A stretch of DNA of 30,493 nucleotides, from the NCBI GenBank assembly GCA_027065775.1, contig JAMONN010000062.1, forward strand, positions 1 through 30,493, read 5' to 3'. Below, in pieces: positions 223 through 30,493 of the stretch. The position numbers and the translations under genes are program-made. Within the stretch, counting starts at the first letter, position 1. The number at the start of each line of letters is the position of its first letter. The notes under the pieces are model-generated. The model did no database searches. It worked only from the letters and a program-made list of their open reading frames with translations, and had not been told where the DNA came from. The stretch is from Flavobacteriaceae bacterium. Its GTDB lineage: Bacteria > Bacteroidota > Bacteroidia > Flavobacteriales > Flavobacteriaceae.

Positions 223-1323
223 TCAAACCACTTCAAATAACTTACCATGCAAAGGTTTCACAACAGCTTTTAATTCTAAATTTAACAAAACACTAGATGT
301 TTTATAAATTGGTAAATTACAATGTAGTGCAATGATGTCTAAAGTTTGTTTTCCTTCTTTCAGTAAATAATTATAGATTAGTTTTTCGGTTTCATCTAAC
401 TCAACAAATAGTTGTTTTTGTATTGCTTTTTCTTTAAAATCGGTTTCCCAATTTAAAATATACGCCAAATCTTTTGCTGAAGTCAAAATTGCAGCTTTAT
501 TGGTTTTTATTAAATTATTACAACCTTTAGAATACAAATCGGTTATTCTACCTGGCAAAGAAAATACATCGCGATTATAAGAATTTGCAATATCCGCAGT
601 TATTAATGAACCGCCTTTTGCCGCAGATTCTATAACAATGGTTGCTTGTGACAAACCAGCAACAATACGGTTTCTTTTAATGAAATTTTCCCTTTCTGGT
701 TTAGAACCTGACCAAAAATCGGTTAAAATTCCGCCATTTTCTTGCATTTTTGTTGCTTCTCTATGATGAGTTTTAGGATACATACTATCTAAACCATGCG
801 CTAAAACTGCCACAGTTTGCAAACCATTTTTTATAGCTAATTGATGAGCAAAAACATCAACACCATAAGCCAAACCACTAATTATTAACGGATCATATTT
901 TTTAATTTCCGCAATTAACTTTTCTAAAACCGACCGACCATAATTAGTCATATTACGAGTACCTACAATACTTAAAATATGACGTTGTTTAAAGTTAATA
1001 TTTCCTTTAGAGAAAAATAGAATAGGACTATCGGCACAATGTTTTAAATTTTCTGGATAATCAGCATCAATAAAAGTTGTGATTTTTATATTGTTTTTAG
1101 AAATAAAATTGAGTTCCTTTGCTGCTTTTTCTAGTAAACTTTTTTCTTTTAATCCTTTTAATTTAAAAGCACCAATACCATCAATTTTTAAAAGACTTTC
1201 ACGTTTTTCCGTAAAAACTGCTTTAGCACTTCCACAATGTTTTATTAATTTTTTAGCATTTAAATCGCCAATCCCTTTTGTTTTTTGGAGTGCTAAAAAA
1301 TAAATTTTTTCTTCATCATTCAT
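223..1323 (-). CDS. dprA: DNA processing protein DprA (Smf)
   Basis: 366 aa with the Rossmann-like DprA core (GLAYGVDVFAHQLAIKNGLQTVAVLAHGLDSMYP) and an N-terminal SAM-like segment. Coordinates include the stop codon. Confidence 0.85.
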   Translation of the reverse strand: MNDEEKIYFLALQKTKGIGDLNAKKLIKHCGSAKAVFTEKRESLLKIDGIGAFKLKGLKEKSLLEKAAKELNFISKNNIKITTFIDADYPENLKHCADSPILFFSKGNINFKQRHILSIVGTRNMTNYGRSVLEKLIAEIKKYDPLIISGLAYGVDVFAHQLAIKNGLQTVAVLAHGLDSMYPKTHHREATKMQENGGILTDFWSGSKPERENFIKRNRIVAGLSQATIVIESAAKGGSLITADIANSYNRDVFSLPGRITDLYSKGCNNLIKTNKAAILTSAKDLAYILNWETDFKEKAIQKQLFVELDETEKLIYNYLLKEGKQTLDIIALHCNLPIYKTSSVLLNLELKAVVKPLHGKLFEVV

Positions 1324-2266
1324 TTTTTTTATTTTTATCTACCGCAATATAAACAGGAAAATGGTCACTCATGCCACCTTGATACCAATGACCTCTATAA
1401 GTTCGTAAAGGGTTTTCAACATATTTACCATATTTATCTTTTAAAAAATGTTTATCATAAATATTCGCATTTTTAAAGGTATGTTTTCCTTGGTAAAATG
1501 TTTTAGAAAAAATAATTTGATCAAATAAATACCAATTACCTTTATGATTACCTGAACCATCGCCTTTGGCAAAAATAGATTCCATTGGGTTATAAAACTC
1601 CTCTGTTACCAAAAATTGTTTGATACTTTTATCTGTTGGGTTATCATTAAAATCACCCATTATAATAATTTTCGGATTTTCGGTTTCTTCTTTAATTTCT
1701 GAAATTATTTTTAAAACCAATTCCGCAGTTTTAATACGTTTATATTCACCACTTCTCCTAGAAGGCCAATGATTTACAATAAAATACATTAATTCACCAT
1801 TTAGTTTTCCTTTTACTAAAAGTATATCTCTTGTGTAATCTATATTACCTATTTCTTCTTCGAATTGAATATAATACGGACGAGATTCTAACAATTCAAA
1901 ATATTTTTTTCGATATAAAAGTGCCACTTCAATACCTCTTTCATCTGGCGAATCATAATGTACAATACCATAATTATATTCTTTTAAAGAACTAGAGTTT
2001 ATCAAATCAAAAACTACTTCATGATTTTCAACTTCAGCAATACCTAAAATTACTGGCGGATGACCTACATCATCATTACCTATGGTTCTTATTGCTTTAG
2101 ATAATCGTTTAATCTTTTTTTTATAGCGTCTTGGCGTCCATTTTTTACTACCTTCAGGTGTAAAATCATCATCATTTGTTTCAGGATCGTCTATGGTGTC
2201 AAATAGATTTTCAAGGTTATAAAATGCAATCGTAAATTCTTCTTTATGTTCTGTTGAGTTTTCCAA
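1316..2266 (-). CDS. endonuclease/exonuclease/phosphatase (EEP) family protein
   Basis: 316 aa. The N-terminal FTIAFYNLENLFD and C-terminal SDHFPV motifs are typical of the EEP fold. Overlaps the dprA start by 8 nt (operon). Confidence 0.7.
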   Translation of the reverse strand: MENSTEHKEEFTIAFYNLENLFDTIDDPETNDDDFTPEGSKKWTPRRYKKKIKRLSKAIRTIGNDDVGHPPVILGIAEVENHEVVFDLINSSSLKEYNYGIVHYDSPDERGIEVALLYRKKYFELLESRPYYIQFEEEIGNIDYTRDILLVKGKLNGELMYFIVNHWPSRRSGEYKRIKTAELVLKIISEIKEETENPKIIIMGDFNDNPTDKSIKQFLVTEEFYNPMESIFAKGDGSGNHKGNWYLFDQIIFSKTFYQGKHTFKNANIYDKHFLKDKYGKYVENPLRTYRGHWYQGGMSDHFPVYIAVDKNKKNE

Positions 2267-2501: not shown

Positions 2502-3713
2502 ATGAATGAAAATGAAAATAATTTAGAAAAAGTTATTTTAGTTGGTGTTATTACACAGCAACAAAACGAAGAAAAAGCAAATGAATATCTAGATGAGTTA
2601 GAGTTTTTAGCTTTTACTGCTGGTGGAATTGTATCAAAACGATTCACGCAAAAAATGGGCATACCAAATACTAAAACCTATATTGGTAGTGGTAAATTAG
2701 ATGAAGTTTTTAATTATATCGAAAATCATAATATTGGTACCGTAATTTTTGATGATGAATTAAGTCCATCTCAATTACGAAATATAGAAAAGGTTTTAGA
2801 TTGTAAAATACTAGATAGAACCAATTTAATTTTAGACATTTTTGCACAAAGAGCACAAACATCTTACGCAAAAACTCAAGTAGAATTAGCACAATGTCAA
2901 TATTTACTACCTAGATTAACGAGACTTTGGACACATTTAGACAAGCAAAAAGGTGGTATTGGTATGCGTGGTCCTGGAGAAACAGAAATTGAAACCGATA
3001 GACGTATTATTAGAGATAAAATAACTGTGTTGCGTAAAAAACTGATTGTTATAGATAAACAAATGGCAGTACAACGTAAAAATAGAGGCAAAATGGTACG
3101 TGTTGCTTTGGTTGGTTATACCAATGTTGGCAAATCTACCTTAATGAATCTTATAAGTAAAAGTAGTGTTTTTGCCGAAAATAAGTTGTTTGCAACTTTA
3201 GATACAACAGTTAGAAAAGTAGTTATTAAAAATATTCCGTTTTTAATGACTGATACTGTTGGTTTTATTAGAAAATTACCAACGCAGTTAGTAGAATCGT
3301 TCAAATCTACTTTAGACGAAGTTAGAGAAGCCGATTTATTATTACATGTGGTAGATATTTCGCATAAAAATTTTGAAGATCATATAAATTCTGTAAATAC
3401 TATTTTAGGTGAAATTAAATGTAATGACAAGCCTACATTAATGGTTTTTAATAAAATTGACGCTTATACACATGAAACTATAGACGATGATGATTTAGAA
3501 ACCGAAAAAACAGCAATTCATTTTACCTTAGGAGAATTAAAAAACTCTTGGATGAGTAAAATGGAAAAAGAAAATACTACTTTTATATCTGCTATAAACA
3601 AAGAAAATATCGAAGAATTTAAATCTAAAACTTATGATGCTGTAAAGAAAATTCATAAAACCAGATTTCCGTACCACGATTATTTATACCAAGAATATGA
3701 TCACTTAACCTAA
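2502..3713 (+). CDS. hflX: GTPase HflX
   Basis: 403 aa with the HflX N-terminal domain plus G-domain motifs GYTNVGKSTLMN, DTVGFI and NKID. Confidence 0.9.
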   Translation: MNENENNLEKVILVGVITQQQNEEKANEYLDELEFLAFTAGGIVSKRFTQKMGIPNTKTYIGSGKLDEVFNYIENHNIGTVIFDDELSPSQLRNIEKVLDCKILDRTNLILDIFAQRAQTSYAKTQVELAQCQYLLPRLTRLWTHLDKQKGGIGMRGPGETEIETDRRIIRDKITVLRKKLIVIDKQMAVQRKNRGKMVRVALVGYTNVGKSTLMNLISKSSVFAENKLFATLDTTVRKVVIKNIPFLMTDTVGFIRKLPTQLVESFKSTLDEVREADLLLHVVDISHKNFEDHINSVNTILGEIKCNDKPTLMVFNKIDAYTHETIDDDDLETEKTAIHFTLGELKNSWMSKMEKENTTFISAINKENIEEFKSKTYDAVKKIHKTRFPYHDYLYQEYDHLT

Positions 3714-3717
3714 AGTT

Positions 3718-3936
3718 ATGAAAATTAAAATAATTACACTTTTATTCATTCTATTATCCCAAACAATATCGTCACAATGCGCTATGTGTAAAGCAGTTGT
3801 AGAGAATGGCGATGCAGATATGGCAGAAGGAATTAATTCTGGTATTACCTTTTTAATGCTGTTTCCGTATCTGTTTTTAGCAATAGGAATAATTATCTAT
3901 TATCGAAATAAAAAAAGAGACGCAAAAAAATTGTAA
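3718..3936 (+). CDS. small secreted or membrane protein (signal peptide, CxxC, C-terminal transmembrane segment)
   Basis: 72 aa with a hydrophobic N-terminus, a CAMCK motif and a C-terminal hydrophobic stretch followed by a basic tail. Lies 4 nt after hflX. Confidence 0.4.
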   Translation: MKIKIITLLFILLSQTISSQCAMCKAVVENGDADMAEGINSGITFLMLFPYLFLAIGIIIYYRNKKRDAKKL

Positions 3937-4062
3937 CATCTAAACAGATTAAACGTCATACAATTGTACAAAAGTTAACTTTAAATGCTAAAAAGTTTGT
4001 TACCTAAAAAATTAATTAATGGCGAACACCATATGTCCGCTAAAAACAATAAATATAAACAC

Positions 4063-6559: not shown

Positions 6560-6562
6560 AAA

Positions 6563-8143
6563 TTACAAGGTATAAAAAAGTTCTAAGACATCAATATTTT
6601 GTTGCTTGTTTTTAGAATGAAATTTCTGTAAAGTAGCGTTATCAATCAATTGAATGCCGCCAATACGAATGTGACAATTAAAAATACTACTATTTTTAAC
6701 CAATAAACCGATTTCATTTTGTGTGAATTTCTTGTTATGAGAGGATAAAATAATATCTAACCTATTTGTTTCAGTAGCTTCTTTTAAATGTATTTTTATT
6801 GAAAATCCTTTACTGTCTGTTTTTTGAAACCAGTTTTTTGTAATTAATCCTTCATTTGATTTCTTGTAAAAAACACTTTTTTCTAATTTGATTTTAGGAT
6901 TTAAAACTTTTAAAATGTTCAGAAAGTTATTATTAAATAAAATACTTTCTATTTTAGGAATTTCATCAAATAAATCAGTAATAAACTCCATTTTAGGAGT
7001 TTGAATTTTAAAATAAGCATTTAATAACTGATTCATTTTCTTAATCTCTCGCAAACTAAAAACCTGATTCAAAATTGCAGAACCTTTATATTTTAGTTTA
7101 TTAGACATATCTATTAATCCTTTTTCTGAAATTTCGGTTTGATAAGATTCTGTCGCATACTTTAAGCGCTGTTTGATTTTTCTTTTTAAAAAAGGTGGCG
7201 AAATTACCCGAATGCCATCACCTAAACCTAAAATCTCTTTTTCTAATTCAAAATTATGTTGCACATTTAAAGAAATAGTAATGCCAAAATTGTCTTTTTT
7301 AATCAGTTTTTGCGAAGCGTGAAAAGGTTTAGTTTGGACATAAGGCGCATGTTTATTATAAACAAAAAGTATGATTTCTTCGGTTTTTAAATCCGGATTT
7401 ATAGAAACGCCAATCGCCTTACTAAAATAATGTTCTAAGTCATATTTACTGTTGTATTTAAACTCAATTTCACTTTCTTGTAAGTCAATAATTCGATCTA
7501 AAGCTAAATTTACCAAATGCTCTTGCCCGTCTCTAATACCAATAACAAACCAACGATTTCTAAATTCTTTTAGTAGATAAGCATGAAAGTCAAAAGTTGC
7601 CGCTTGTCTTGCTTTAAAGGATTTGTAGGTTATTTTAATTGCTTTTTTAGTAATTATTGTTTGGTACAATGTGTCTAAAAAATTTAATCCTTTTAAGTTT
7701 TCATTCTTTTCAAATTCAATTACTGGTTTGGTTCTTGTCTGATTAGAATATACATGATCTTCCAATTTTTGAATAACACCATTTAAAGCATCAAAATGCG
7801 AAAAACCTTTAAATTGTTTTAAAAACGCAACGGATTCCGACAGTTTTTCTAAATCTTGACTACTAATTGGTAGATTGGTAATGCTATATTTTTCTTCTTC
7901 GTAGGTATAATATTTACGATCAACTACAATAATTGGTGCGTTGTAACCTAATTTGTCACTTCGCATATTTTGAATATCTAATTGAACAGTCCGTTTACTT
8001 ACATTACAATCTTTTCCTTCGTATTCGTATAAAGCGTCTGAACATTCTTCTATTAAATCGTCTAAAGTCCATTTTCTAAACCTGTTTTGCAAACATTTAT
8101 CAATGGTTTTATATCTAATTAATGCGTTTTTATTTAGTGCCAT
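6563..8143 (-). CDS. WYL-domain transcriptional regulator (HTH-WYL-WCX) with an extra ~190-aa C-terminal domain of unknown function
   Basis: The N-terminus MALNKNALIRYKTIDKCLQNRFRKWTLDDLIEECSDALYEY is the hallmark HTH start of Bacteroidetes WYL regulators. A WYL-like core (HAYLLKEFRNRWFVIGIRDGQEHLVNL) and a WCX-like segment (GLGDGIRVISPPFLKRKIKQRL) follow. At 526 aa it is much longer than typical ~320-aa members. Confidence 0.7.
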   Translation of the reverse strand: MALNKNALIRYKTIDKCLQNRFRKWTLDDLIEECSDALYEYEGKDCNVSKRTVQLDIQNMRSDKLGYNAPIIVVDRKYYTYEEEKYSITNLPISSQDLEKLSESVAFLKQFKGFSHFDALNGVIQKLEDHVYSNQTRTKPVIEFEKNENLKGLNFLDTLYQTIITKKAIKITYKSFKARQAATFDFHAYLLKEFRNRWFVIGIRDGQEHLVNLALDRIIDLQESEIEFKYNSKYDLEHYFSKAIGVSINPDLKTEEIILFVYNKHAPYVQTKPFHASQKLIKKDNFGITISLNVQHNFELEKEILGLGDGIRVISPPFLKRKIKQRLKYATESYQTEISEKGLIDMSNKLKYKGSAILNQVFSLREIKKMNQLLNAYFKIQTPKMEFITDLFDEIPKIESILFNNNFLNILKVLNPKIKLEKSVFYKKSNEGLITKNWFQKTDSKGFSIKIHLKEATETNRLDIILSSHNKKFTQNEIGLLVKNSSIFNCHIRIGGIQLIDNATLQKFHSKNKQQNIDVLELFYTL

Positions 8144-8233
8144 TTAAAAATTTTGCAAGTATTTATTGTATATTTATTTTGATTATCAGCAGTTTAACTG
8201 AATAGCACTTCAAAAATAAGTAATATTTTTTTA

Positions 8234-8254
8234 TTGCGCAAAAAGATTGCGTAC
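8234..8254. promoter_or_regulatory. operator-like inverted repeat TTGCGCAA-aaaga-TTGCGTAc, copy 1
   Basis: Lies in the divergent WYL / RtcB-like intergenic region. A near-identical site (TTACGCAA-aaaga-TTGCGTAA) recurs at 11943-11963 with conserved flanks. Confidence 0.45.
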
Positions 8255-8293
8255 TAGTTTAGAAATATTTGCAATGTAAATAATTCAAAGTAG

Positions 8294-9796
<1,503 letters not shown>

Positions 9797-9802
9797 TTTT
9801 AT

Positions 9803-9832
9803 ACCTGTTAATTAATTTAGCAGGTTTTTTTA
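9803..9832. terminator. intrinsic terminator between the convergent RtcB-like and toxin genes
   Basis: acctg / ttaattaatttag / caggt followed by ttttttt. Confidence 0.55.
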
Positions 9833-10120
9833 TTCCATTATTTTATTTGGATGTTGACTTGTATTAAAAACACGCATAATATAAATGATATCATCAGTAA
9901 TAAAATAAACCATTTTGAAACTCCATTTCACAATAAATCGAATATTATCATTATTAAAACTAGGCTCTTTTGGGTAAGCAAACGGAAAAATTTTAAGAGA
10001 ATTTGGTAACTCTAATAATGTATTTAAAACTTTAATTGCATTTTGAGGACTTTGTTTAGCAATATAACTTACATTATTATTTAAATCTTGATGTGCTTTT
10101 TTATCCCAAATTATTTTCAT
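9830..10120 (-). CDS. type II toxin, RelE/ParE family
   Basis: 96 aa. IIWDKKAHQDL ... IRFIVKWSFKMVYFITDDIIYIMRVFNTSQHP matches the RelE/ParE fold pattern. It overlaps the upstream small gene by 20 nt, as is classic for toxin-antitoxin operons. Confidence 0.65.
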   Translation of the reverse strand: MKIIWDKKAHQDLNNNVSYIAKQSPQNAIKVLNTLLELPNSLKIFPFAYPKEPSFNNDNIRFIVKWSFKMVYFITDDIIYIMRVFNTSQHPNKIME

Positions 10121-10355
10121 TCAAAATATTATTTCTAACTTCTTTGGTAGTATATAAAGTTGCTGTTCCGTTTTTTATTGCCATAATACTTTTATTCATT
10201 TCTTTAATATATTGACTTTCGTAAATGGGTTTGCCTTTAGCATATCCAACAATATTCTCGCTTTCTATAAGTGTTTTCAACTTATTTAATAGCAAATCAT
10301 CAGAAATTCCTAATATTTTTTGTGCTAATGAAATTTTTAAAGTTTCAGTACTCAT
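10101..10355 (-). CDS. putative cognate antitoxin
   Basis: 84 aa. It sits upstream of and overlaps the toxin gene. It is not clearly Phd/ParD-like, so the family is unassigned. Confidence 0.45.
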   Translation of the reverse strand: MSTETLKISLAQKILGISDDLLLNKLKTLIESENIVGYAKGKPIYESQYIKEMNKSIMAIKNGTATLYTTKEVRNNILNENNLG

Positions 10356-10403
10356 AACTATTCTTCAATTTTTATAAATGCAATATACAATAATAATTTT
10401 ATT

Positions 10404-10613
10404 ACATTTGCAAAAAATTACACAGTAATTCAATAATGAAAACAATATTAACACAAAGCAGCTTACTACACGGAAATTATCCGTGTGTTCGTTTTTCGAA
10501 TAGTTTCGAAAAAGGCAGATGCTTTGTGCTTAAAAAACGACAGATTTAATAAAATTTTTCTGTAAATAATATAAAAACACAAAGCATTCAATTAAATTGG
10601 ATGCTTTTTTTTG
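10404..10613 (+). ncRNA. candidate small RNA (~190 nt) with its own -7 box and an intrinsic terminator
   Basis: A TAcaTTTG box lies at 10404-10411. There is no ORF. Long-range complementarity links cacaaagca (10452-10460) with tgctttgtg (10519-10527). Internal hairpins include acacggaaattatccgtgt. The terminator is agcat / tcaattaaattgg / atgct followed by T8 at ~10578-10613. Confidence 0.3.
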
Positions 10614-10919
10614 GTCTAAATAGTAATAAAATAGTAGAAATAACGATAAAAAATTCCGAATCAAGTTCGGAATGACAATAATAAACAATAAATTTAAAAA
10701 TATTCTAAAAATTAAAAATAACTAAAATAAAATCTTGAACATAAAACCAATTGAGAGACAGACAGTTGAAAAAATGTAAAAATTCGCTAAAATGCGAAGA
10801 GGAAATCTATTGCCTAAATTTAATTTAACTGTTTGATTATCAATAAAATAAATTAATTTTTTCTTGTTTAGTAATATAATTTGTCTTTATATTTGCACCG
10901 GAAATAATTTATAAAAAAA

Positions 10920-11027
10920 ATGAAACAATTTAATTTACATATAGAACTGCCGAGTTTATCATTACAACGATTTTATAGTTGTGAAGAATCGCAAATAAAA
11001 GATATTGGAGAATGTTTATTAGAATAA
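10920..11027 (+). CDS. 35-aa small ORF (MKQFNLHIELPSLSLQRFYSCEESQIKDIGECLLE) with its own promoter and terminator; alternatively a non-coding sRNA
   Basis: A -7 box TAtaTTTG lies at 10888-10895 and the ATG at 10920. The TAA stop is followed by the terminator gcatctc / ctaacc / gagatgc plus a T-run (11051-11079). Confidence 0.25.
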   Translation: MKQFNLHIELPSLSLQRFYSCEESQIKDIGECLLE

Positions 11028-11092
11028 CTATGTAAAATACATATTTATAAAAGCATCTCCTAACCGAGATGCTTTTTTTATGCAATTAATTT

Positions 11093-11179
11093 GGAAGAGC
11101 AAGCCAATTGGTGGTGGCCGCAGTTTTGAACATTGTTAGGAGATAATGACTCGTGTGGGTTCGATTCCCACTTCTTCCG
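11093..11179 (+). tRNA. tRNA-like gene with a long variable arm (class II-like) and a defective anticodon stem; possible pseudo-tRNA
   Basis: The acceptor pair GGAAGAG / TTCTTCC, the D-stem GCCA / TGGC and the T-arm GTGGG-TTCGATT-CCCAC are intact. No 5-bp stem with a 7-nt loop can be drawn around ...cgcagttttgaacattg.... Coordinates are approximate to within 1 nt. Confidence 0.35.
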
Positions 11180-11189
11180 CAAAAAAAAT

Positions 11190-11276
11190 GGAGAGTAGGC
11201 AAATATTGGTTTGTTGCGCTTGTTTGCTAAACAAGTCTATGTAAAAGTAGTGAAGGTTCGATTCCTTTATTCTCCG
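11190..11276 (+). tRNA. tRNA-Ser (anticodon GCT)
   Basis: Acceptor GGAGAGT / ATTCTCC, D-stem GCAA / TTGC, anticodon stem CTTGT / ACAAG with loop ttGCTaa, a 16-nt variable arm and T-arm GAAGG-TTCGATT-CCTTT. It is AT-rich. Confidence 0.8.
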
Positions 11277-11288
11277 CAATTAAATTAA

Positions 11289-11371
11289 GGAAATGTTGAG
11301 CAATTGGTTGGCTCACCTGACTGTAAATCAGGTCTGTAAAAAGCATGTAGGTTCAAATCCTACCATTTCCA
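11289..11371 (+). tRNA. tRNA-Tyr (anticodon GTA)
   Basis: Acceptor GGAAATG / CATTTCC, D-stem GAGC / GCTC, anticodon stem CCTGA / TCAGG with loop ctGTAaa, a long variable arm, T-arm GTAGG-TTCAAAT-CCTAC and discriminator A. Confidence 0.85.
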
Positions 11372-11435
11372 CAAAGCACTGAAATAATTCAACTGTCTCT
11401 TGAGTTGTTTGTTTTAAATAATAATCAGTGCTAAA

Positions 11436-11507
11436 TCTGAGAAGATAACGTTGGTAGTTTACTCGCCTTGGACGCGAGAGGTTGCAAGTTCGATTCTTGC
11501 TTCTCAG
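11436..11507 (+). tRNA. tRNA-Pro (anticodon TGG)
   Basis: C1:G72 acceptor CTGAGAA / TTCTCAG (typical for bacterial tRNA-Pro), anticodon stem CTCGC / GCGAG with loop ctTGGac, T-arm GCAAG-TTCGATT-CTTGC and discriminator A. Confidence 0.75.
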
Positions 11508-11512
11508 ACAAA

Positions 11513-11585
11513 TGTTCCGTTAGTATAATGGTTAGTACGCTTGACTTTCTATCAAGATATAAGAGTTCGATTCTCTTACGGAATA
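11513..11585 (+). tRNA. tRNA-Glu (anticodon TTC), unusually AT-rich (~34% GC), with G1·U72 and a pyrimidine at position 37
   Basis: Acceptor GTTCCGT / ACGGAAT, D-stem GTAT / GTAC, anticodon stem CTTGA / TCAAG with loop ctTTCta and T-arm AAGAG-TTCGATT-CTCTT. Confidence 0.65.
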
Positions 11586-11590
11586 CAAAT

Positions 11591-11663
11591 GCAGCAATGG
11601 CGGAATGGTATACGCGTTGGTTTTAGAAACCAAATTTTGAAAGTTCGAGTCTTTCTTGCTGTA
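11591..11663 (+). tRNA. non-canonical class-I tRNA with anticodon TAG (a Leu anticodon but no long variable arm), with G1·U72
   Basis: Acceptor GCAGCAA / TTGCTGT, D-stem GCG / CGC, anticodon stem TTGGT / ACCAA with loop ttTAGaa, a 5-nt variable loop, T-arm GAAAG-TTCGAGT-CTTTC and discriminator A. Confidence 0.55.
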
Positions 11664-11668
11664 CAAAT

Positions 11669-11748
11669 TGACTTGTGATGTAATGGTTAGATATAAGAAT
11701 TTGACTCTTATTATAGAGGTTCTTCCAAATTTCGGACTTTCAAGTCAA
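11669..11748 (+). tRNA. tRNA-Gln-like (anticodon TTG, U1:A72 as in bacterial tRNA-Gln) with an aberrant, enlarged T-arm region; possible pseudogene or structural variant
   Basis: Acceptor TGACTTG / CAAGTCA, anticodon stem TAAGA / TCTTA with loop atTTGac. There are 30 nt between the anticodon arm and the 3' acceptor strand instead of ~22, and no canonical TTCGA T-loop (ggttcttcc instead). Confidence 0.4.
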
Positions 11749-11755
11749 TAAATAT

Positions 11756-11830
11756 GGTGTTATTGTTGAAACTGGTTTATCATAGAAGGTTGTGAACTTT
11801 CCGTTACGAGTTCGAGTCTCGTATAACACC
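11756..11830 (+). tRNA. tRNA-His (anticodon GTG), with the encoded G-1
   Basis: G-1 is followed by acceptor GTGTTAT / ATAACAC and discriminator C73. Anticodon stem GAAGG / CTTTC with loop ttGTGaa and T-arm ACGAG-TTCGAGT-CTCGT. Confidence 0.8.
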
Positions 11831-11942
11831 CAAAATAGAAATATAGTTTAATTAGATAAAACCTTGGTTTACGACATCAAAAATGCGAGTTCTCCCGAAG
11901 TTTCGGGATTGCTATTTCTACAAAAAATAAAAATAATTTTTA

Positions 11943-11963
11943 TTACGCAAAAAGATTGCGTAA
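11943..11963. promoter_or_regulatory. operator-like perfect inverted repeat TTACGCAA-aaaga-TTGCGTAA, copy 2
   Basis: Perfect 8-bp arms with a 5-bp spacer. The flanks (aataatttttatta...) match copy 1 at 8225-8254. Confidence 0.45.
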
Positions 11964-12006
11964 CAGATTAAGTTATTTGTATCATAATTAAATACAACTA
12001 GTAATT

Positions 12007-12036
12007 CTCTGATGTTTAGTGGATGAAACATCAGAG
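12007..12036 (+). promoter_or_regulatory. conserved leader hairpin, copy 2 (perfect 11-bp stem)
   Basis: ctctgatgttt / agtggatg / aaacatcagag. It lies at the same 44-45 nt distance from the palindrome as copy 1. Confidence 0.45.
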
Positions 12037-12238
12037 ATTGTTTGATAATTAATAAGTTCTTTAAAATATAATTTCAATTTGGTTTGAAATGTAAAATTTT
12101 TCCGTTAAAACGGAAAACAAGGTAGAAAAAAGTAATTAGAAAACCTGATACGTGTTTCTGAATAGCACTATGGTATTGTACTTAATAAGTAACAATATGC
12201 CGTTTCGGTTATTTTTGTTTTACCACACCTTGTAGGTC

Positions 12239-12404
12239 GAAGGTTCGATTCCTTCTCTAGTTTATTCTAGATAGTTCAGCGGTTAGAACAACAAGTTGCT
12301 TGTTACAGGTTCGAGTCCTGTTTCCAATACTTAACAATATTTGTTGGAATAACTCAATTGGTAGAGTAGCACTACACTTTCAATGTAGGTTCGAAGAAGA
12401 TCAC
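12239..12404 (+). pseudogene. cluster of degenerate tRNA remnants (T-arms and D-arms without functional acceptor or anticodon stems)
   Basis: (a) 12239-12255, gaaggttcgattccttc, has 16 bp identical to the tRNA-Ser T-arm at 11258-11273. (b) ~12266-12329 has a perfect D-arm (gttc-agcggtta-gaac) and T-arm (acagg-ttcgagt-cctgt), but its anticodon arm is 15 nt and the acceptor strands do not pair. (c) ~12346-12404 has a D-arm (actc-aattggta-gagt) and a truncated T-loop (ggttcgaag). Confidence 0.4.
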
Positions 12405-12736
12405 TTCTAAAAAGATCGATGAATTTAAGGTTCATTTAATGAAGTTGATTACTTCTAAAAATAATCAAAACCAAAAGAAATCTAAAACAAGTCGGTTATT
12501 ACGTTTACGCAATAACACTCTTAAAAAAACCTTGAAGTTTAAGGATTCCGTACTATTAATTAGTATTACTTTTTAAAAGAATTGTTTTGTACAACTACAA
12601 ACTTGTAGTTTTATAATTCACTTTTGTTTAATAACTAATATTAGGCAATGTTACTCAATTAAACTTCCGTATTTAAAAGAGGGTTTGTTTTAGATGTCTT
12701 TTACAAAAACGAATAATAAAATTAAATATAAATAAA

Positions 12737-13834
12737 ATGAAAAAAGTAAGAATTAACGAAGGTAAAATAGGTTTGGTTTTTAAAAACGGAAACTACAAAA
12801 GAGTATTAACTAGTGGTAACTATTGGTTATTGTTCTCTGAAAAAGTATACATATACAATTTAAGTACTGAGTTTTTTGCACCAGTAAAATTAGAATTATT
12901 GTTGCAAAATATTGATTTAGAGAATAAATTAAATATTATAGAGGTATTGGACAACGAAATTGTTTTAAAATATGAAAACAAGATTTTTAAAGGTGTTTTA
13001 AGAGCAGGTAAATATGCATTTTGGAAAAGTAAAATCAATAATTACACTTTTACAAAAGTAGATTTAAGTAAGGTTGAAATTACGGAAACTATTAGTAAAT
13101 CTGTTTTAAAAAAAGCAGAGTTATTGCAATATTTAAGAGTTTACGTTGTAGAATCTTACGAAAAAGCAATTTTGTTTTTAAATGGTAAAATACAAGAAGT
13201 TTTAAAAAGTGGTACATATTATTTTTGGAAAAACGATGTGAATATTAAAATTGAAAAAGTGGATTTAAGACAAATTCAGTTAGAAATTTCAGGTCAAGAA
13301 ATGTTAACCAAAGATAAAACCGCTTTAAGAATCAACTTTTATGCTCAATATAAAGTAGTTGATATCAATAAAGCTTTATTAGATAATAAAAATTTCGAGA
13401 AGCAATTGTATATTTTAATTCAATTAGTTTTAAGAGAATATATTAGTGCATTAACTTTAGATGAATTGTTAGAAAACAAAATAACTATTGCAAATAAAGT
13501 TTCTGATGATGTTGGCAAGAAAGCAATGACTTTAGGTGTTCAGATTTTAGATTCTGGTATTAGAGACGTTATTTTGCCTGGTGAGATTAAAGATATTATG
13601 AATCAAGTATTAATTGCTCAAAAGAAAGCACAAGCCAATGTGATTTCTAGAAGAGAAGAAACCGCAGCAACAAGAAGTTTGCTAAACACTGCAAAATTAA
13701 TGGAAGATAACGCGATGTTATTCAAATTAAAAGAAATGGAATATGTCGAAAAAATTGCAGATAAAATTGGTGAAATTACAGTTGCTGGTAGCGGAAATGT
13801 AGTGGAGCAATTAAAGACTATTTTTAGTAAGTAA
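12737..13834 (+). CDS. SPFH/band-7 (prohibitin/stomatin-like) protein with an N-terminal extension containing a repeated motif
   Basis: The C-terminal half carries the SPFH signature (GVQILDSGIRDVILPGEIKDIMNQVLIAQKKAQANVISRREETAATRSLLNTAKLMEDNA). The N-terminal ~135 aa contain three ~35-aa repeats of G.Y.FWK...KVDL. Confidence 0.75.
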   Translation: MKKVRINEGKIGLVFKNGNYKRVLTSGNYWLLFSEKVYIYNLSTEFFAPVKLELLLQNIDLENKLNIIEVLDNEIVLKYENKIFKGVLRAGKYAFWKSKINNYTFTKVDLSKVEITETISKSVLKKAELLQYLRVYVVESYEKAILFLNGKIQEVLKSGTYYFWKNDVNIKIEKVDLRQIQLEISGQEMLTKDKTALRINFYAQYKVVDINKALLDNKNFEKQLYILIQLVLREYISALTLDELLENKITIANKVSDDVGKKAMTLGVQILDSGIRDVILPGEIKDIMNQVLIAQKKAQANVISRREETAATRSLLNTAKLMEDNAMLFKLKEMEYVEKIADKIGEITVAGSGNVVEQLKTIFSK

Positions 13835-13884
13835 ATTTATTAAACTTCAAAAATAAAGAAGATTCTTTATTAGAAAGGTAATTA

Positions 13885-13915
13885 ATTCATACGATGATTT
13901 TAAATCATCGTATGA
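13885..13915. terminator. 31-nt perfect palindrome (15-bp stem), a probable bidirectional terminator between the convergent SPFH and mobA-like genes
   Basis: ttcatacgatgattt / a / aaatcatcgtatgaa. Confidence 0.5.
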
Positions 13916-15079: not shown

Positions 15080-15310
15080 ATTGGTTTGTTATTTAATGCT
15101 GGATTTTTATACTTGGTTTATCTTTTATCACTACAAGTTTACTCTTATTGTTTGATTCGTGAGACTCTAAAAAATTATTTTCAATTTTTTAGTTAGTTAT
15201 GTCTTTGACTTGGCGAGTCGAACTAATCCCGATTTTTTAACGGGATATTGGTTTAATACCTTTTATTAAATTTATTAAGAACCGTTTTTTTACCTTGGTA
15301 CTTTTCAGTT

Positions 15311-20217: not shown

Positions 20218-20332
20218 ACAACAATACATTAAAGTTTTAAACCAAGGTAACTATTATTACTAATAAATTGCGAAACTGTGCCTATTTTTGCAGCAGTTAA
20301 TTAAACTACTACTACTAAAAAAAACTATAGAT

Positions 20333-21664
20333 ATGGAAGATATGATCTTTTATGATCGTCTGCAATTTGCATTCACCATAACTTTTCACTACATATTTCC
20401 GCAATTAACTATGGGTTTATCCTTGATAATTGTTTATTTTAAATGGAAATATTTACGCAACAAAACAGAAAAATATAACGATGCTGCAAAGTTTTTTATG
20501 AAAATATTTGCCATTAATTTTACCATGGGAGTTGTAACAGGAATACCAATGGAATTTCAATTCGGAACAAATTGGGCGAAATTTTCTGAACTTACAGGCG
20601 GAATTATAGGACAAACATTAGCCATGGAAGGCATGTTTTCGTTCTTTTTGGAATCTTCGTTTTTAGCATTGTTCCTTTTTGGAGAAAAATTAATGGGACA
20701 AAAATTACATTTCCTCACAGGATTTCTAGTCTTTTTAGGTTCTTGGGCAAGTGGCTATTTTATTTTAGCGACCAATGCTTGGATGCAACATCCTGTTGGA
20801 TACGAAATTTTAGATAACGGAAAATTTGTACTAACGCATTTTTCAGAATTATTTAAAAATCCGTGGTTATTACCTGCTTTTTTACATAATCAAGCAGCAT
20901 CTTTAGTAACTTCTTCTTTTGTGGTTGCTAGTATTGGTACATTTTATGTCTTAAGAAAAAAACATATTGAATTCGGTAAACTATTTTTAAAAACAGGTGT
21001 TATTTTTGGATTAATTTCAACATTAGCGGTAGCTTTTCCTACTGGAGATTGGAATGCAAAAAATGTTGCAAAATACCAACCAGCAACTTTTGCTGCAATG
21101 GAAGGTATTTTTGAAACAGAACACGCAGGTTCAGAAATAGTGTTGGTTGGACAACCAAACATGGTAGAAAAAAAATTAGATAATAAAATTGCAGTACCAA
21201 ATGTGTTGAGTTTTTTAACCTATCAAGAATGGGATAAACAAATTTTAGGAATGGATAAATTCAAAAAAGAAGAATTGCCAGATAATATTCCTGCATTATA
21301 TTATTCCTATCATATTATGGTTGGTTTAGGAACAATTTTTATCGGTATTATGGCCTTAGCAGTTTTCTTTTTATGGCGAAAAAAACTATTTACAATAAAA
21401 CCTTTACTTTGGACTATTATGTTTCTTGTACCATTTCCTTACATCGCAAATATCACAGGTTGGTACGTTGCAGAATTAGGTAGGCAACCTTATTTAGTAT
21501 ATGGTTTATTAAGAACCAAAGAAGGCATTTCGCCAACAGTATCTTCAGGAAATACATTATTTACCTTATTAGGCTTTGTCGCTTTATACATGTTACTTGG
21601 TTTGTTATTTTTAGTATTAGTAGGTAAAACAATTCACCAAGGACCAAAACCTCAAAATCATTAA
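20333..21664 (+). CDS. cydA: cytochrome bd ubiquinol oxidase subunit I
   Basis: Haem-ligand region and Q-loop (GQPNMVEKKLDNKIAVPNVLSF). The start is placed at MEDMIFYDRLQFAFTITFHY. A -7 box TAttTTTG lies at 20283-20290. Confidence 0.9.
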   Translation: MEDMIFYDRLQFAFTITFHYIFPQLTMGLSLIIVYFKWKYLRNKTEKYNDAAKFFMKIFAINFTMGVVTGIPMEFQFGTNWAKFSELTGGIIGQTLAMEGMFSFFLESSFLALFLFGEKLMGQKLHFLTGFLVFLGSWASGYFILATNAWMQHPVGYEILDNGKFVLTHFSELFKNPWLLPAFLHNQAASLVTSSFVVASIGTFYVLRKKHIEFGKLFLKTGVIFGLISTLAVAFPTGDWNAKNVAKYQPATFAAMEGIFETEHAGSEIVLVGQPNMVEKKLDNKIAVPNVLSFLTYQEWDKQILGMDKFKKEELPDNIPALYYSYHIMVGLGTIFIGIMALAVFFLWRKKLFTIKPLLWTIMFLVPFPYIANITGWYVAELGRQPYLVYGLLRTKEGISPTVSSGNTLFTLLGFVALYMLLGLLFLVLVGKTIHQGPKPQNH

Positions 21665-21666
21665 CT

Positions 21667-22740
21667 ATGGAAATCTTTTGGTATTTATTAATAACACTAG
21701 TGTTAATCATCTTTTTTATTTTAGATGGTTATGATTTTGGCACAGGAATCATTCATTTATTTTTAGCAAAAAAAGAAAAAGATAAAGAAGTTATCGCAAA
21801 AGCAGCAGGTTTGTTTTGGGATTCTAATGAAGTTTGGTTTGTTGCTGCTGGAGGAATGTTATTTATGGCTTTCCCTACATATTATGCATCGGTTTTTAGT
21901 GGTTTTTATTTGCCATTAATCATTGTTTTATGGTTAATTATTTTTAGAGCTATTGGTTTAGAATTAAGAGCACAATTTCCGTACGAAATGTGGAAAAATA
22001 TTTGGGATAAAGCCTTCGGCGTGTCCAGTTTATTATTAGCATTGTTTTTCGGAATTGCTTTAGGAAATATAGTTAGAGGTGTAAATTTAGGCGGTTTTGA
22101 AAATGGTGTTTCTGCCTACGAAGCACATTATTTTTTCTTACCATTATGGAATAGTAGTTTTAGTCCGTTAGCAGAAAACCCAGGAGTAATTGATTGGTTT
22201 ACCATAATTATAGGTATTATTTCGGTAGTTACATTATCGTTACATGGTGCAAATTGGATTATCTTAAAAACGAACGCTTCCATAAACCAACAACTAAAAA
22301 AACTTGTTTTTAAACTAAGTATTGTACAAGCAATATTAACTTTTTTCTCTCTATTTATTTGGTTTAAAGTAAATCCAAATTGTTTTAACAATTTTTTAGA
22401 CAAACCGTATTTAGTAGTTTTTCCACTCATTTATTTTACAGGTTTAGTAGGTTTAATTTTAGTGAAGAAACACCAAAATTTTTCTAGGAATTTTATATTT
22501 TCAAGTTTATTGATTTTTGGAGGAATTGCGTCATCATTAGCATCTATATTTCCCGTAATACTACCATCTACAAATAACGTAAACGCACCATTAACCATTT
22601 ACAATACAAGCACAACTAATTATGGTTTATCGGTTGCATTAAATTGGGCAATTGTAGGAATTATTTTAATGATTGCTTATTTTATTATCCAAAAAAGATT
22701 GCGAAAAGGAAAAATAGACGAGATGGATTACGGACATTAA
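21667..22740 (+). CDS. cydB: cytochrome bd ubiquinol oxidase subunit II
   Basis: 357 aa polytopic membrane protein directly after cydA (2-nt gap), with CydB-like topology. Confidence 0.85.
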   Translation: MEIFWYLLITLVLIIFFILDGYDFGTGIIHLFLAKKEKDKEVIAKAAGLFWDSNEVWFVAAGGMLFMAFPTYYASVFSGFYLPLIIVLWLIIFRAIGLELRAQFPYEMWKNIWDKAFGVSSLLLALFFGIALGNIVRGVNLGGFENGVSAYEAHYFFLPLWNSSFSPLAENPGVIDWFTIIIGIISVVTLSLHGANWIILKTNASINQQLKKLVFKLSIVQAILTFFSLFIWFKVNPNCFNNFLDKPYLVVFPLIYFTGLVGLILVKKHQNFSRNFIFSSLLIFGGIASSLASIFPVILPSTNNVNAPLTIYNTSTTNYGLSVALNWAIVGIILMIAYFIIQKRLRKGKIDEMDYGH

Positions 22741-22750
22741 ATTTATAAAA

Positions 22751-23059
22751 ATGACAGAAACATTAATCTCATTAATTAGTATATTTTTTGGAATAATTAG
22801 CGCAAATCTAATGGGTTTTTTCTTTAAAAAATATTCTTTCGGTTATACAGGAAATACCATTTCAGGAGTTTTTGGAAGTATCTTTTTAATTAAGTCTTTT
22901 GGTAGTTTAGGAATTAATCCAACCATAATAATGCAAAATGGTACTGTCAACATAAATTTATTAATTTTAAATATTATGGTTTCTATTTTAGGAGGAATTA
23001 TGGCGTTAATTATAATAAGAAAATTTAAATTAATAATGAAAGTAAGATCTAAAGTCTAA
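22751..23059 (+). CDS. small membrane protein following cydB (possible accessory subunit)
   Basis: 102 aa with 3 hydrophobic helices. It starts 10 nt after cydB. Confidence 0.35.
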   Translation: MTETLISLISIFFGIISANLMGFFFKKYSFGYTGNTISGVFGSIFLIKSFGSLGINPTIIMQNGTVNINLLILNIMVSILGGIMALIIIRKFKLIMKVRSKV

Positions 23060-27196: not shown

Positions 27197-29827
27197 CTAT
27201 AAATATTCTTTCGCTTTTTCTAAAGCTTCAGCAATTCCGTTAGGATTTCTTCCGCCTGCTGTAGCAAAAAATGGTTGTCCGCCGCCACCGCCATGAATTA
27301 ATTTTCCTAATTCTCTAACAACTTTACCTGCATCTAAACCTTTTTCAGCAACTAAGTTTTTAGAAATATAACAGGTTAGTAATGCTTTTTCTTCGTTTTT
27401 TGTGCCAGCAATAAAAAACAGATTGTCAATTTTATTTCCTAAATCAAACATTAAATTTTTAATTGCAGAAGCATCTAAATCTAAAGTGGTTGCTAAAAAA
27501 TTGACACCATTTATTATTTGAATATTTTTTTCTAAATCACTACCAACCGATTTTGCTTTTTCACGCATTAAACTTTCTATTTGCTTTTTAAGTTTTGCAT
27601 TTTCTTCTTGAATAGTAGCAACCGATTTTACCACACCAATAGGATTTTTTAACAGTTGTTTTAATTTTAAAAATTCTAAATCTTGATTGGTATAGTAATC
27701 TTTTGCAGCATCATTAGTTATCGCTTCAATACGTCTAATTCCACTAGCAACTGCACCTTCTTGTGTGATTTTAAAGTGCCAAATATCGCTTGTATTTTGT
27801 ACGTGTGTTCCTCCACAAAGTTCTTTAGATTTTCCGAATTCAATCATTCTAACTGTATCCCCATATTTTTCGCCAAAAAGAGCCATTGCGCCTTTTTCAA
27901 GAGCAGTATCCATAGTGATATTTCGGTGTTCTTTTAAATCAAGTTTTCCTCTAATTCTTGCATTTACAAAATCTTGAACTTCTTGTAATTCTTTTGGTGT
28001 TAATTTTGAAAAATGCGAAAAATCAAAACGTAAATATTTACTATGTACTGCAGAACCTTTTTGCTCTACATGTGTACCTAATATTTCTCGTAATCCTTGA
28101 TGTAATAAATGTGTTGCAGTATGATTACATTCCGTTCTAAAACGTTGTTTTTCATCTACAACTGTTTTAAAAGTATCCGTTACATTTTTAGGTAAATTTT
28201 TAGTAAAATGAATTATTAAATTATTTTCTTTCTTAGTATCTATAATATAAACTACGTTTCCGTTAGGAACTTCTAAATAACCTTTATCACCAACTTGTCC
28301 GCCACCTTCTGGATAAAAAGGCGTTAAATTGAAAACTAATTGGTACATATCTCCATCTTTTTTAGAAGAAATTTTACGGTATCTCGTAATTTTCACATTA
28401 CTTGACAATGCATCGTAACCAATAAATTCTTCTTCATTATCATCTACTAAAACAACCCAATCATCGGTATCTATTTTACTTGCAGAACGTGATCGTTCTT
28501 TTTGTTTTTGTAACTCTTCTTTAAATGTTTTTTCGTCTAAAGTATAACCTTGTTCACTTAAAATAAGCGCTGTTAAATCAATAGGGAAACCAAAAGTATC
28601 GTATAGTTCAAATGCTTTCTTTCCAGAAACTTCTTTTTCGTTTGTAGATTTAATTATTCCGTCTAATAGAATTAAACCTTGTTCTAAAGTTCTTAAAAAT
28701 GAATTTTCTTCCTCTTTAATAACGTTAGAAATTAATTGTCTTTGTGCGATTAACTCTGGAAATGCCTCACCCATTTGTTTAGAAAGTAAACCAACTAAAC
28801 GATACATAAATGGTTCTTTTTTATCTAAAAATGTAAAACCATAACGGATTGCTCTTCTTAAAATTCTTCGAATCACATAACCAGCACCATTATTAGAAGG
28901 TAATTGTCCATCGGCAATTGCAAAAGCAACCGCTCTAATATGATCTGCAATTACGCGTATGGCAATATCTTTTTCTTCACGTTTTTCTGGTGACAGTTTT
29001 TGATCTTCATAACGTGTTTGTGTAATTGTTTCCACTTCACGAATTAAAGGTGTAAACACATCGGTATCGTAATTAGATTGCACGCCTTGTATTACCATAC
29101 AAAGTCGTTCAAAACCCATACCAGTATCTACATGAGTTTCAGGTAAATTTTCTAAAGAACCGTCTGCTTTTCGGTTGTATTGCATGAAAACGAGATTCCA
29201 AATTTCGATAACTTGCGGATGATCCATATTCACTAATGATTTACCATCTACTTTTTCTTTGTCTTCTTTAGAACGAATATCTACATGGATTTCTGAGCAA
29301 GGTCCACAAGGTCCTTGTTTGCCCATTTCCCAAAAATTATCTGCTTTATTTCCGTTTATAATTCGGTTTTTGTCGATATATTTTGTCCAAATATCGAATG
29401 CTTCTTGATCAAAATCTAATTTATCTTTTTTATCACCTTCAAAAACAGTAACATAAATGGAGTTTTTATCAATTTTATAAACTTCCGTTAATAATTCCCA
29501 TGCCCAAGAAATTGCTTCTTCTTTAAAATATTCGCCAAAAGACCAATTACCTAACATTTCGAACATTGTATGATGGTACGTATCTTTACCAACTTCTTCT
29601 AAATCGTTATGTTTACCAGAAACACGCAAACATTTTTGAGAATCTGCTATACGTTTTACTTCGGCTTTTTTCTGACCTAAAAAATATTCTTTAAATGGTA
29701 CCATACCTGCATTAACAAACATTAATGTAGGGTCATTCTTTAAAACCATTGGTGCAGATGGCACAATTTTATGTTGTTTTTCTTTAAAAAAATCTAAAAA
29801 TTGCTGTCTTATTTCTGTTGCATTCAT
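27197..29827 (-). CDS. alaS: alanine--tRNA ligase
   Basis: 876 aa with class II aaRS motifs, the editing domain HxxxH...CGGTH and the C-terminal DHHA1-like region. Confidence 0.95.
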
Positions 29828-30126
29828 TGTGATTTAAACCTTAATTTCTAATTTAAAGGCAAAAGTAAGTTATTTTTTATTAGATGTGAAGTAGAAAAAG
29901 AATTCTTAGACACGGATTTCACAGATTACACGGATTTTGATGTTTATTTAGCCTCGAATTGTACTAATTTTCACAAATTTATTGCTGTGTGAATTTCACT
30001 GATATAGAGACTTTAAGTTTACCAAAATAAACTCTTAGACTTGTATTATACTTGTTTATGTAAAAGTGTAAAAACAGGAAGCCTGAGTATATAATGAGGA
30101 AGTAATAGCGTAAAATTTTTTATGGT

Positions 30127-30237
30127 TAGTGCAACAATAGGAAGGTTTAGTGCAGTTATTTTGGGGTCTAGTGCAAAATGAGGTATATAAAGTGTAGCAA
30201 TGTTAAGGTTTAGTGCGTAACTTTTTAGTGATAGTGC
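30127..30237. repeat. phased array of TAGTGC(A) sites with strict 21-bp periodicity
   Basis: TAGTGC occurs at 30127, 30148, 30169, 30211 and 30232, with a degenerate copy (gtgTAGCa) at ~30190. Most sites are preceded by GGTT(T). Confidence 0.5.
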
Positions 30238-30257
30238 CGTTTGTTTATGTTAAAGTA

Positions 30258-30291
30258 CAGTTTCTTGTGTTTACTGTTTCTTGTGTTTTTA
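30258..30291. repeat. tandem direct repeat (2 x ~16 bp), cagTTTCTTGTGTTTa / ctgTTTCTTGTGTTTtt
   Basis: Adjacent copies are visible directly. They lie next to the 21-bp phased array. Confidence 0.5.
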
Positions 30292-30493
30292 ACATATAAG
30301 GCATAAAAGAGCATATAAGTTTTGTTATTTGTTTTCTAGGTAGTTTATTTTATCTTTTAGTAGGTTCCTTAAATCCGCAAGTTAATTTAAAACTTCAGGA
30401 AAACCTTAAAATTTCATTTTTAGTTGTTCTTTACGGTAAATATATGTTGCATATTTTGTGTTTTTAATTACTTTTCGATTTCTTCTGTATATT

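Follow-up and report, generated by a model that had tools for sequence, protein, structure and literature searches.

Upstream of the alaS gene of a member of the Flavobacteriaceae that is uncultured and low in GC (about 29%), we have found an array of ten same-orientation units phased strictly at 21 bp, in which one short contiguous word has been kept while the sequence between the words has diverged. We tentatively favor reading it as an iteron-like array for a DNA-binding protein, carried on lineage-specific and possibly acquired DNA that has been cut off by a mobile element. The window, by which we mean the whole stretch of DNA analysed (30,493 nucleotides), is chromosomal, and the nearest named AlaS is that of Lutibacter, with about 75% identity. 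If a protein does bind the array, the array would open a first way into a module for replication, partition or regulation in a low-GC marine flavobacterium that has not been cultured, and to our knowledge genetic tools and known origins are scarce for such organisms. As things stand the value of the finding is mostly cautionary, as it concerns an orphan array in a single genome at an edge that is explained by a multicopy mobile element, and the array bears on no long-standing open question.

An earlier note, made from the sequence alone, had described five TAGTGC cores in strict 21-bp register and a degenerate copy filling a sixth slot. All five cores have been confirmed (Table 1), and the slot at 30190 holds, in register, the degenerate word AAGTGT. 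What had been understated is the extent, as 10-11 slots rather than five to six follow the lattice, and the register does not disappear when it is extended, with zero insertions or deletions across 210 bp. The outermost units have been found to be the most degenerate. The autocorrelation of 30043-30273 peaks at lags 21, 42 and 63 only (z of 5.6, 6.8 and 5.4), and there is no signal at lags 20, 22, 10 or 11. The consensus of the units can be written as TAGTGCAAAAAT(A/T)GG(A/T)AGGTT, with a 42-bp higher-order pattern, and the array is bracketed by a 16-bp direct repeat, TTGTTTATGT[A/T]AAAGT, whose copies at 30052 and 30241 are 189 bp, i.e., 9 x 21 bp, apart. The worry that TAGTGC might be a common word with no preferred place has been removed: elsewhere in the 30.5-kb window 7 copies occur on both strands, against 7.7 expected genome-wide, and TAGTGC is a rare word that clusters at the array only.

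Table 1. Features of the alaS-proximal end of the window (coordinates in the window)
Feature	Position	Strand	Remarks
alaS (alanine-tRNA ligase), flanking gene	27197..29827	-	
alaS core-promoter -7 box TACTTTTG, Bacteroidetes type	29860..29867	-	260 bp from first exact core
Orphan non-coding segment carrying the array	29898..30366		Alignment with relatives, ORFs, composition
9-bp x 3 repeat ACACGGATT TCACAGATT ACACGGATT	29910..29936	+	Dispersed genome word motif, outside array
-7-like box TAAATTTG, exact TAnnTTTG	29974-29981	-	Between array and alaS
21-bp-phased array	30043..30273	+	11 slots x 21 bp; lattice listing, column statistics, autocorrelation
Array units, ten	30064 to 30253	+	Eleventh slot at 30043 weak
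Bracketing direct repeat, left copy TTGTTTATGTAAAAGT	30052..30067	+	94% identical to partner at 30241-30256
In-register degenerate cores AAGTGT, GAGTAT, TAGCGT	30064, 30085, 30106 (30064..30111)	+	Direct-repeat listing, lattice listing
Exact TAGTGC cores	30127, 30148, 30169, 30211, 30232	+	Within 30127..30237
Off-lattice extra copy TAGTGA	30226..30231	+	Abuts core at 30232; read from sequence
Bracketing direct repeat, right copy TTGTTTATGTTAAAGT	30241..30256	+	Direct-repeat family listing
Last in-register degenerate core AAGTAC	30253..30258	+	Lattice listing
16-bp tandem repeat TACWGTTTCTTGTGTT x 2	30256..30288	+	Overlaps last array unit
Motif CATATAAGGCATAAAAGAGCATATAAG, two CATATAAG words 19 bp apart	30293..30319	+	Dispersed; twice in contig L215, upstream of genes
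Multicopy mobile element terminus, begins CCTTAAATCCGCAAGTTAATTTAAAAC	30367..30493		Thirteen copies, sharp common boundary

The array has also been found to stand apart from its genomic background. A lattice score built from the core reaches 51.6 bits at the array and 10.7 bits at the next best place in 1.66 Mb of related Bacteroidota DNA. Over the same DNA we have searched for hexamers that recur between diverged spacers at a constant period in the range 12-40 bases, and no other array with five or more exact copies has been obtained; the smaller arrays that occur there have periods that are mostly multiples of 3. A second such array has been found neither in the organism itself nor in its relatives (about 1.7 Mb of related sequence). 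With units only about 50% alike, the array is missed by Tandem Repeats Finder.

The distribution of conservation within the unit carries the argument for binding. The mean pairwise identity amounts to 0.72 for the six core columns and to 0.40 for the fifteen spacer columns, and random sequence of the same composition gives 0.30. The conserved columns form a single contiguous core, WAGTGYA, in which the "AG" at positions 2-3 is present in all ten units, the next T in nine and the next G in eight, and such contiguity of the well-conserved columns is reached in cyclic column permutations with p = 0.0015. The autocorrelation of the spacers alone still exceeds chance (z of 3.9 at lag 42 and 2.3 at lag 21), and consequently the units share ancestry; since the spacer signal is stronger at lag 42 than at lag 21, the array has grown by tandem duplication, probably via a 42-bp double unit. 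A kept word between drifting spacers fits selection on a short binding word better than the neutral decay of a minisatellite, because neutral decay erodes core and spacers alike and unequal crossing-over keeps both alike; the statistical case for selection on the core is one of ten short units in one genome. The earlier proposal that bound proteins would line up along the same side of the helix, as they do in iterons and cooperative arrays, is sound in its geometry, and the contrast between the contiguous core and the diverged spacers has strengthened it.

On the reading that we favor, the array would provide about ten docking sites in the same orientation for one sequence-specific DNA-binding protein. 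In each site the 6-7-bp word W-AGTG-Y-A would be followed, at a distance of about 11-12 bp, by a second and weaker contact (AGG/AAGG), and the spacing of two helical turns would place the protomers on one face of the DNA, where cooperative binding becomes possible as in iterons and multi-site operators. The sites arose as tandem duplicates, probably of a 42-bp double unit, and the spacers would then have drifted while the word was kept. The DNA on which they lie, about 470 bp that are lineage-specific and possibly acquired, would have taken the place of the ancestral DNA immediately upstream of the alaS core promoter; its far side would later have been cut off by the insertion of the multicopy mobile element. 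The gene that the array serves, be it an initiator, a regulator, a recombinase or their target, would then reside outside the window. Protein binding, its cooperativity and the outside origin of the DNA are three points that we infer. Within the binding reading, replication iterons, a multi-site operator for a gene now hidden by the element, and sites for a recombinase or transposase are all candidates.

The main competitor is a functionless 21/42-bp minisatellite, which slippage or unequal crossing-over would have multiplied within intergenic junk and which would now be eroding, its conserved core being a sampling accident or a mutational cold spot. As the strongest rival it has to be taken seriously, and we regard it as possible, if rather doubtful. 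The residual spacer homology with its 42-bp pattern is typical of tandem amplification, the degeneracy of the outermost units agrees with it, and so do the absence of the array from relatives and the lack of an associated gene within the window. Moreover, the segment around the array is largely composed of short words that this lineage scatters in intergenic regions (the 9-bp x 3 repeat and CATATAAG recur in contig L215), and the DNA upstream of hflX in the closest relative contains a palindromic repeat element with TTAGTGT and TTAGTGG words. Bacterial minisatellites (VNTRs) and dispersed intergenic words indeed share with the array a tandem origin, a higher-order period, degenerate edge units, restriction to one lineage and the neighborhood of short dispersed repeat words. 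What a minisatellite leaves unexplained is the contiguity of the conserved columns, and the array differs further from this class by its near-random spacers and by a register without indels over 210 bp. The central units share identical cores but near-random spacers, where homogenisation would give the opposite, and the spacers have diverged almost fully although a close relative is devoid of the array, from which it follows that the array is old relative to its present location and that the core has outlasted the spacers.

The location of the array has been examined by comparison with related alaS loci. The alaS core promoter with its -7 box, for which TAnnTTTG is the Bacteroidetes consensus, is conserved by alignment between the window and the relatives L202 and L203, and the similarity of the region upstream of alaS to the relatives stops at about 29898-29912. 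What lies beyond varies: in L202 (AlaS 93% identical) a 418-bp spacer is followed by an exonuclease-family gene and dprA, in L203 (86%) recJ lies about 140 bp upstream, and in L219 and L220 (both 89%), L205 and L206 (both 87%) and L204 (84%) an M23 peptidase gene is located 140-180 bp upstream, which, judged from these sequences, looks like the ancestral arrangement. The exonuclease-family and dprA genes that adjoin alaS in L202 are situated at the opposite end of the window (223-2266), and the alaS neighborhood is a rearrangement hot spot in this lineage. The array is absent upstream of alaS in five relatives (AlaS 93, 89, 87, 86 and 84% identical) and from 80 further Bacteroidota alaS loci, mostly of Flavobacteriaceae. 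It has been seen in one genome only, which is present in two assemblies, and the protein collection holds no other AlaS more than 93% identical to that of the window. Hence the array is not a conserved control element of alaS; it is lineage-specific DNA at a rearrangement junction. A simple inversion relative to the closest relative has been considered and rejected: the segment should then match the DNA upstream of hflX there, and no significant similarity has been detected.

The segment itself (about 470 bp) is without counterpart in the relatives examined. Its plus strand is much richer in G than in C (skew 0.3-0.65), and its GC content varies between 23 and 37%, compared with about 29% for the genome, so that it is not markedly AT-richer; a composition scan across it has revealed neither a sharp AT-rich block nor a distinct unwinding region. 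Searching 29880-30493 with blastn against phage and plasmid collections has given zero matches. The repeats that had been described next to the array are real, both the 16-bp tandem and the 9-bp x 3 repeat, and the latter has a 97% identical copy in L215, a contig of the metagenome with other copies of the multicopy element. The region had further been described as a non-coding stretch of more than 650 bp. Its non-coding nature holds, with no ORF of at least 30 aa in the 666 bases to the right of alaS, while its unity does not, because the multicopy element already begins within it and takes up the final 127 bp (30367-30493).

This element has been recognized from a 24-mer (30427-30450) that is found at the extreme end of twelve contigs from a single JGI metagenome. 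The thirteen sequences are 100% identical from 30367 outward, over 91-127 bases per contig, and unrelated before 30367. The stretch 30367-30493 represents one end of a mobile element that occurs in many identical copies, at least 13, and the window and its contig end here because this element begins at 30367. Of the other copies (the contig ends L207-L218), some sit inside genes, some directly precede start codons and some are intergenic. A second assembly with an identical alaS (megahit, k = 141) ends 14 nt past the window; provided that the window derives from a k = 127 assembly, this offset equals 141 minus 127 and fits a repeat that starts about 126-140 bases before the contig ends. The sequence in front of the element reads ...TAGTAGGTT, a putative target-duplication sequence. 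No inverted copy of the terminus is present in the 13 contigs, and a 33-aa peptide from the terminus, in which a reading frame ends about 38 bases inside the element, has no match in plasmids or in the protein collection. The element is therefore not assignable to a named IS family, and no transposase is recognizable in its terminus.

The element begins 94 bp past the last array unit, and it had been suggested that the array belongs to an adjacent element beyond the window. This has not been borne out for the element that is visible: its other 12 copies carry no array, their flanks are unrelated up to the boundary and their lattice scores are at background, and consequently the array is not part of the multicopy element. 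Following the DNA past 30493, where rep, integrase or regulator genes had been envisaged, has yielded only the mobile-element terminus and 14 nt more, with no such gene. On the alaS side the array is adjoined by 30 kb of housekeeping genes, and Rep, integrase, ParB/partition and LytTR domains have been sought against Pfam in 20 window ORFs of at least 100 aa, none of which contains them; the other five ORFs of this size are alaS and a DEAD-box helicase (both next to the array) and three shorter ones. No candidate binding protein or dependent gene is visible on this side, and the region past the array is hidden behind the multicopy element.

If a protein does bind it, the array would probably be one more phased direct-repeat binding array of a kind already known. 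That marine Flavobacteriaceae use it as the working platform of a DNA-binding system not described before (with an initiator, a partition protein or a regulator encoded behind the element), characterized by a 7-bp word, a strict two-turn lattice and a four-turn (42-bp) higher-order unit and lacking sequence relatives in current phage, plasmid and genome collections, seems unlikely to us.

Among the specific forms that binding could take, an origin of replication with iterons, brought in by an integrated plasmid- or phage-like element and served by a rep gene behind the mobile element, is distinctly improbable. With at least three direct repeats of about 17-22 bp in helical phase as the hallmark of iterons, the 10-11 units at 21 bp correspond well, and the bipartite units are compatible with a two-domain protein that touches successive major grooves, as in iteron systems. 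Classical iterons are conserved over most of their length, though, and here conservation is limited to the short core (core 0.72, spacer 0.40, random 0.30). Theta-plasmid iterons and lambdoid phage origins likewise have several repeats that all point the same way and recur about every 21-22 bp, or two helical turns; in the array, by contrast, conservation covers only 6-7 bp of the unit, the units number ten and show a 42-bp higher-order pattern, and they sit on the chromosome beside a housekeeping gene, with no rep gene on the visible side and no DnaA box or distinct AT-rich region. In pMbo4.6, for instance, an AT-rich region and four 21/22-bp direct repeats lie upstream of repA (PMC3557383), and it is the number of repeats, their orientation and their two-turn spacing in which the array matches such iteron arrays (PMC3557383). 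The lineage-specific character of the DNA at a rearrangement junction would suit an integrated element as well, but the segment shows no similarity to any phage or plasmid record, and no comparable array occurs in IMG/VR contigs. There the phased TAGTGC pattern gives more than 120 matches, none of them relevant: all but one fall where one or more reading frames are open, mostly in Ala-rich heptad-type units with higher GC, and the exception is a plain 7-bp tandem repeat; a stricter phased pattern gives 10 matches in unrelated sequences. No DnaA box TTATCCACA with at most one mismatch lies within 1.5 kb of the array, and the ten near-matches in the window are scattered, equal in number to the chance expectation of 10.0, with none in 29828-30493. 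An oriC has been discarded as well, there being no DnaA-box cluster near the array.

Recombinase or transposase sites at the end of a larger element, which would extend to the right and would later have been hit by the multicopy element, are very unlikely. The models for such an end are the 22-bp TnsB sites of Tn7-like right ends, Mu ends and arm-type integrase sites. Tn7 right ends consist of same-orientation, closely packed sites of about 21-22 bp, and the packing of the array at about 21 bp reproduces this layout; the segment starts at a rearrangement junction, and a TGT is found at 30042-30044, at the start of the weakest outer slot. Sites of a terminus would be expected right at the tip of the element, yet the ancestral junction at about 29898-29912 precedes the first slot by roughly 130-145 bp. 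Tn7-like and Mu ends carry 3-4 sites that start from the very tip, whereas the array has ten, a number well above that of known ends; they start no closer than 130 bp to the junction, the best of them are internal instead of terminal, and no transposition genes are visible in the window.

An activator or repressor array acting on alaS, e.g., via a distal promoter, had been offered as the alternative in the earlier note and has to be regarded as extremely unlikely. The array does lie 240-450 bp upstream of alaS on the promoter side, with an exact TAnnTTTG box between array and gene. This distal box is not accompanied by a -33 TTG, and the five relatives, which retain the similarity upstream of alaS to about 29898-29912, keep the core promoter without the array, their ancestral neighbor being the M23 peptidase gene 140-180 bp away. 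A housekeeping tRNA ligase would moreover hardly need a ten-site array in one strain. LytTR-type sites have been weighed and rejected too: the consensus of this family is [TA][AC][CA]GTTN[AG][TG], and it has zero matches on either strand of 29898-30366. What is shared is geometry only, the direct orientation and a centre-to-centre spacing of about 21 bp: LytTR sites are direct repeats of about 9 bp set 12-13 bp apart, with a gap of 12 bp given in PMC6193735; the known sites (AgrA, ComE, HdrR/BrsR) are paired direct repeats just upstream of the -35 (PMC6193735, PMC4227749), whereas the array has ten in a row, with no promoter next to it and no LytTR domain in the window proteins scanned. On the plus strand between the array and the mobile element, no convincing promoter of the Bacteroidetes type has been found.

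A relic of a coding heptad repeat (a pseudogene) or a non-coding RNA with repeated modules is largely refuted and retains next to no likelihood: a minus frame is open for 67 codons (30049-30249) with AL-x5 heptads, and 21-nt-phased TAGTGC in viral contigs lies mostly in Ala-rich heptad-type open frames, but this frame as read from the sequence contains no ATG, GTG or TTG, its openness alone has a p of roughly 0.03-0.1 for the composition (a hand estimate), the column identities show by hand no 3-base periodicity of conservation, HMMER against 1.84 billion representative proteins returns repeat-against-repeat artefacts only, the plus-strand frames across the array carry stops, and for an RNA the folding is no better than that of shuffled sequence on both strands (z of +0.7 and +2.0), with no Rfam match at E <=1.

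Several further features of this genome and its relatives have been observed. Both dispersed motifs of the segment, including CATATAAGG-N-CATATAAG, recur in L215 at about 1833-1870, 3268-3298 and 3917-3956, each time upstream of a gene, one of which, read by eye, encodes an apparent sigma-54-type activator. A sigma-54 promoter in CATATAAGG has been dismissed, the GG-to-GC spacing being one base short and the other copies being devoid of GG and GC. A palindromic repeat element with the words TTAACCACAAGGTTCACAA and TTAGTGTCCTTAGTGGTTAA has been found in L230, the closest relative (HflX 98% identical), at 187-324, and at 2328-2466 of L210, a contig of the metagenome that carries other multicopy-element copies, with 83% identity between the two; its TTAGTG words resemble the core of the array, but they are spaced by about 9-10 bp and arranged palindromically.

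Directly upstream of hflX a hairpin-rich element of about 170 bases is located (window ~2315-2470, L230 ~540-690, L202 ~3460-3760), for which no Rfam match has been obtained and whose 3' part (AAAAAATT-GAAAAT-AATTTTTT) is also present at 15144-15195 of the window. The closest relative has two copies of it, which flank the whole hflX-to-alaS block. Comparison of the two genomes shows the exonuclease-dprA block on opposite sides and reversed in orientation, so that it has been rearranged between close relatives. About 7.3 kb of the window (~6560-13900) are absent from the closest relative. They contain genes for a WYL/WCX-domain regulator (6563-8143), an RtcB RNA ligase (8369-9796) and an SPFH/Band 7 protein (12737-13834), together with seven tRNA genes (Ser, Ser, Tyr, Pro, Glu, Leu and His; 11093-11831) in very AT-rich non-coding DNA, and this region looks like a strain-specific tRNA-repair or tRNA-supply island. 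Finally, cydA and cydB (cytochrome bd oxidase) and a 102-aa ORF occupy 20288-23059 of the window, between a MOSC-domain gene and a Crp-family regulator, and at this position the closest relative has only a small gene for a heavy-metal-associated protein.
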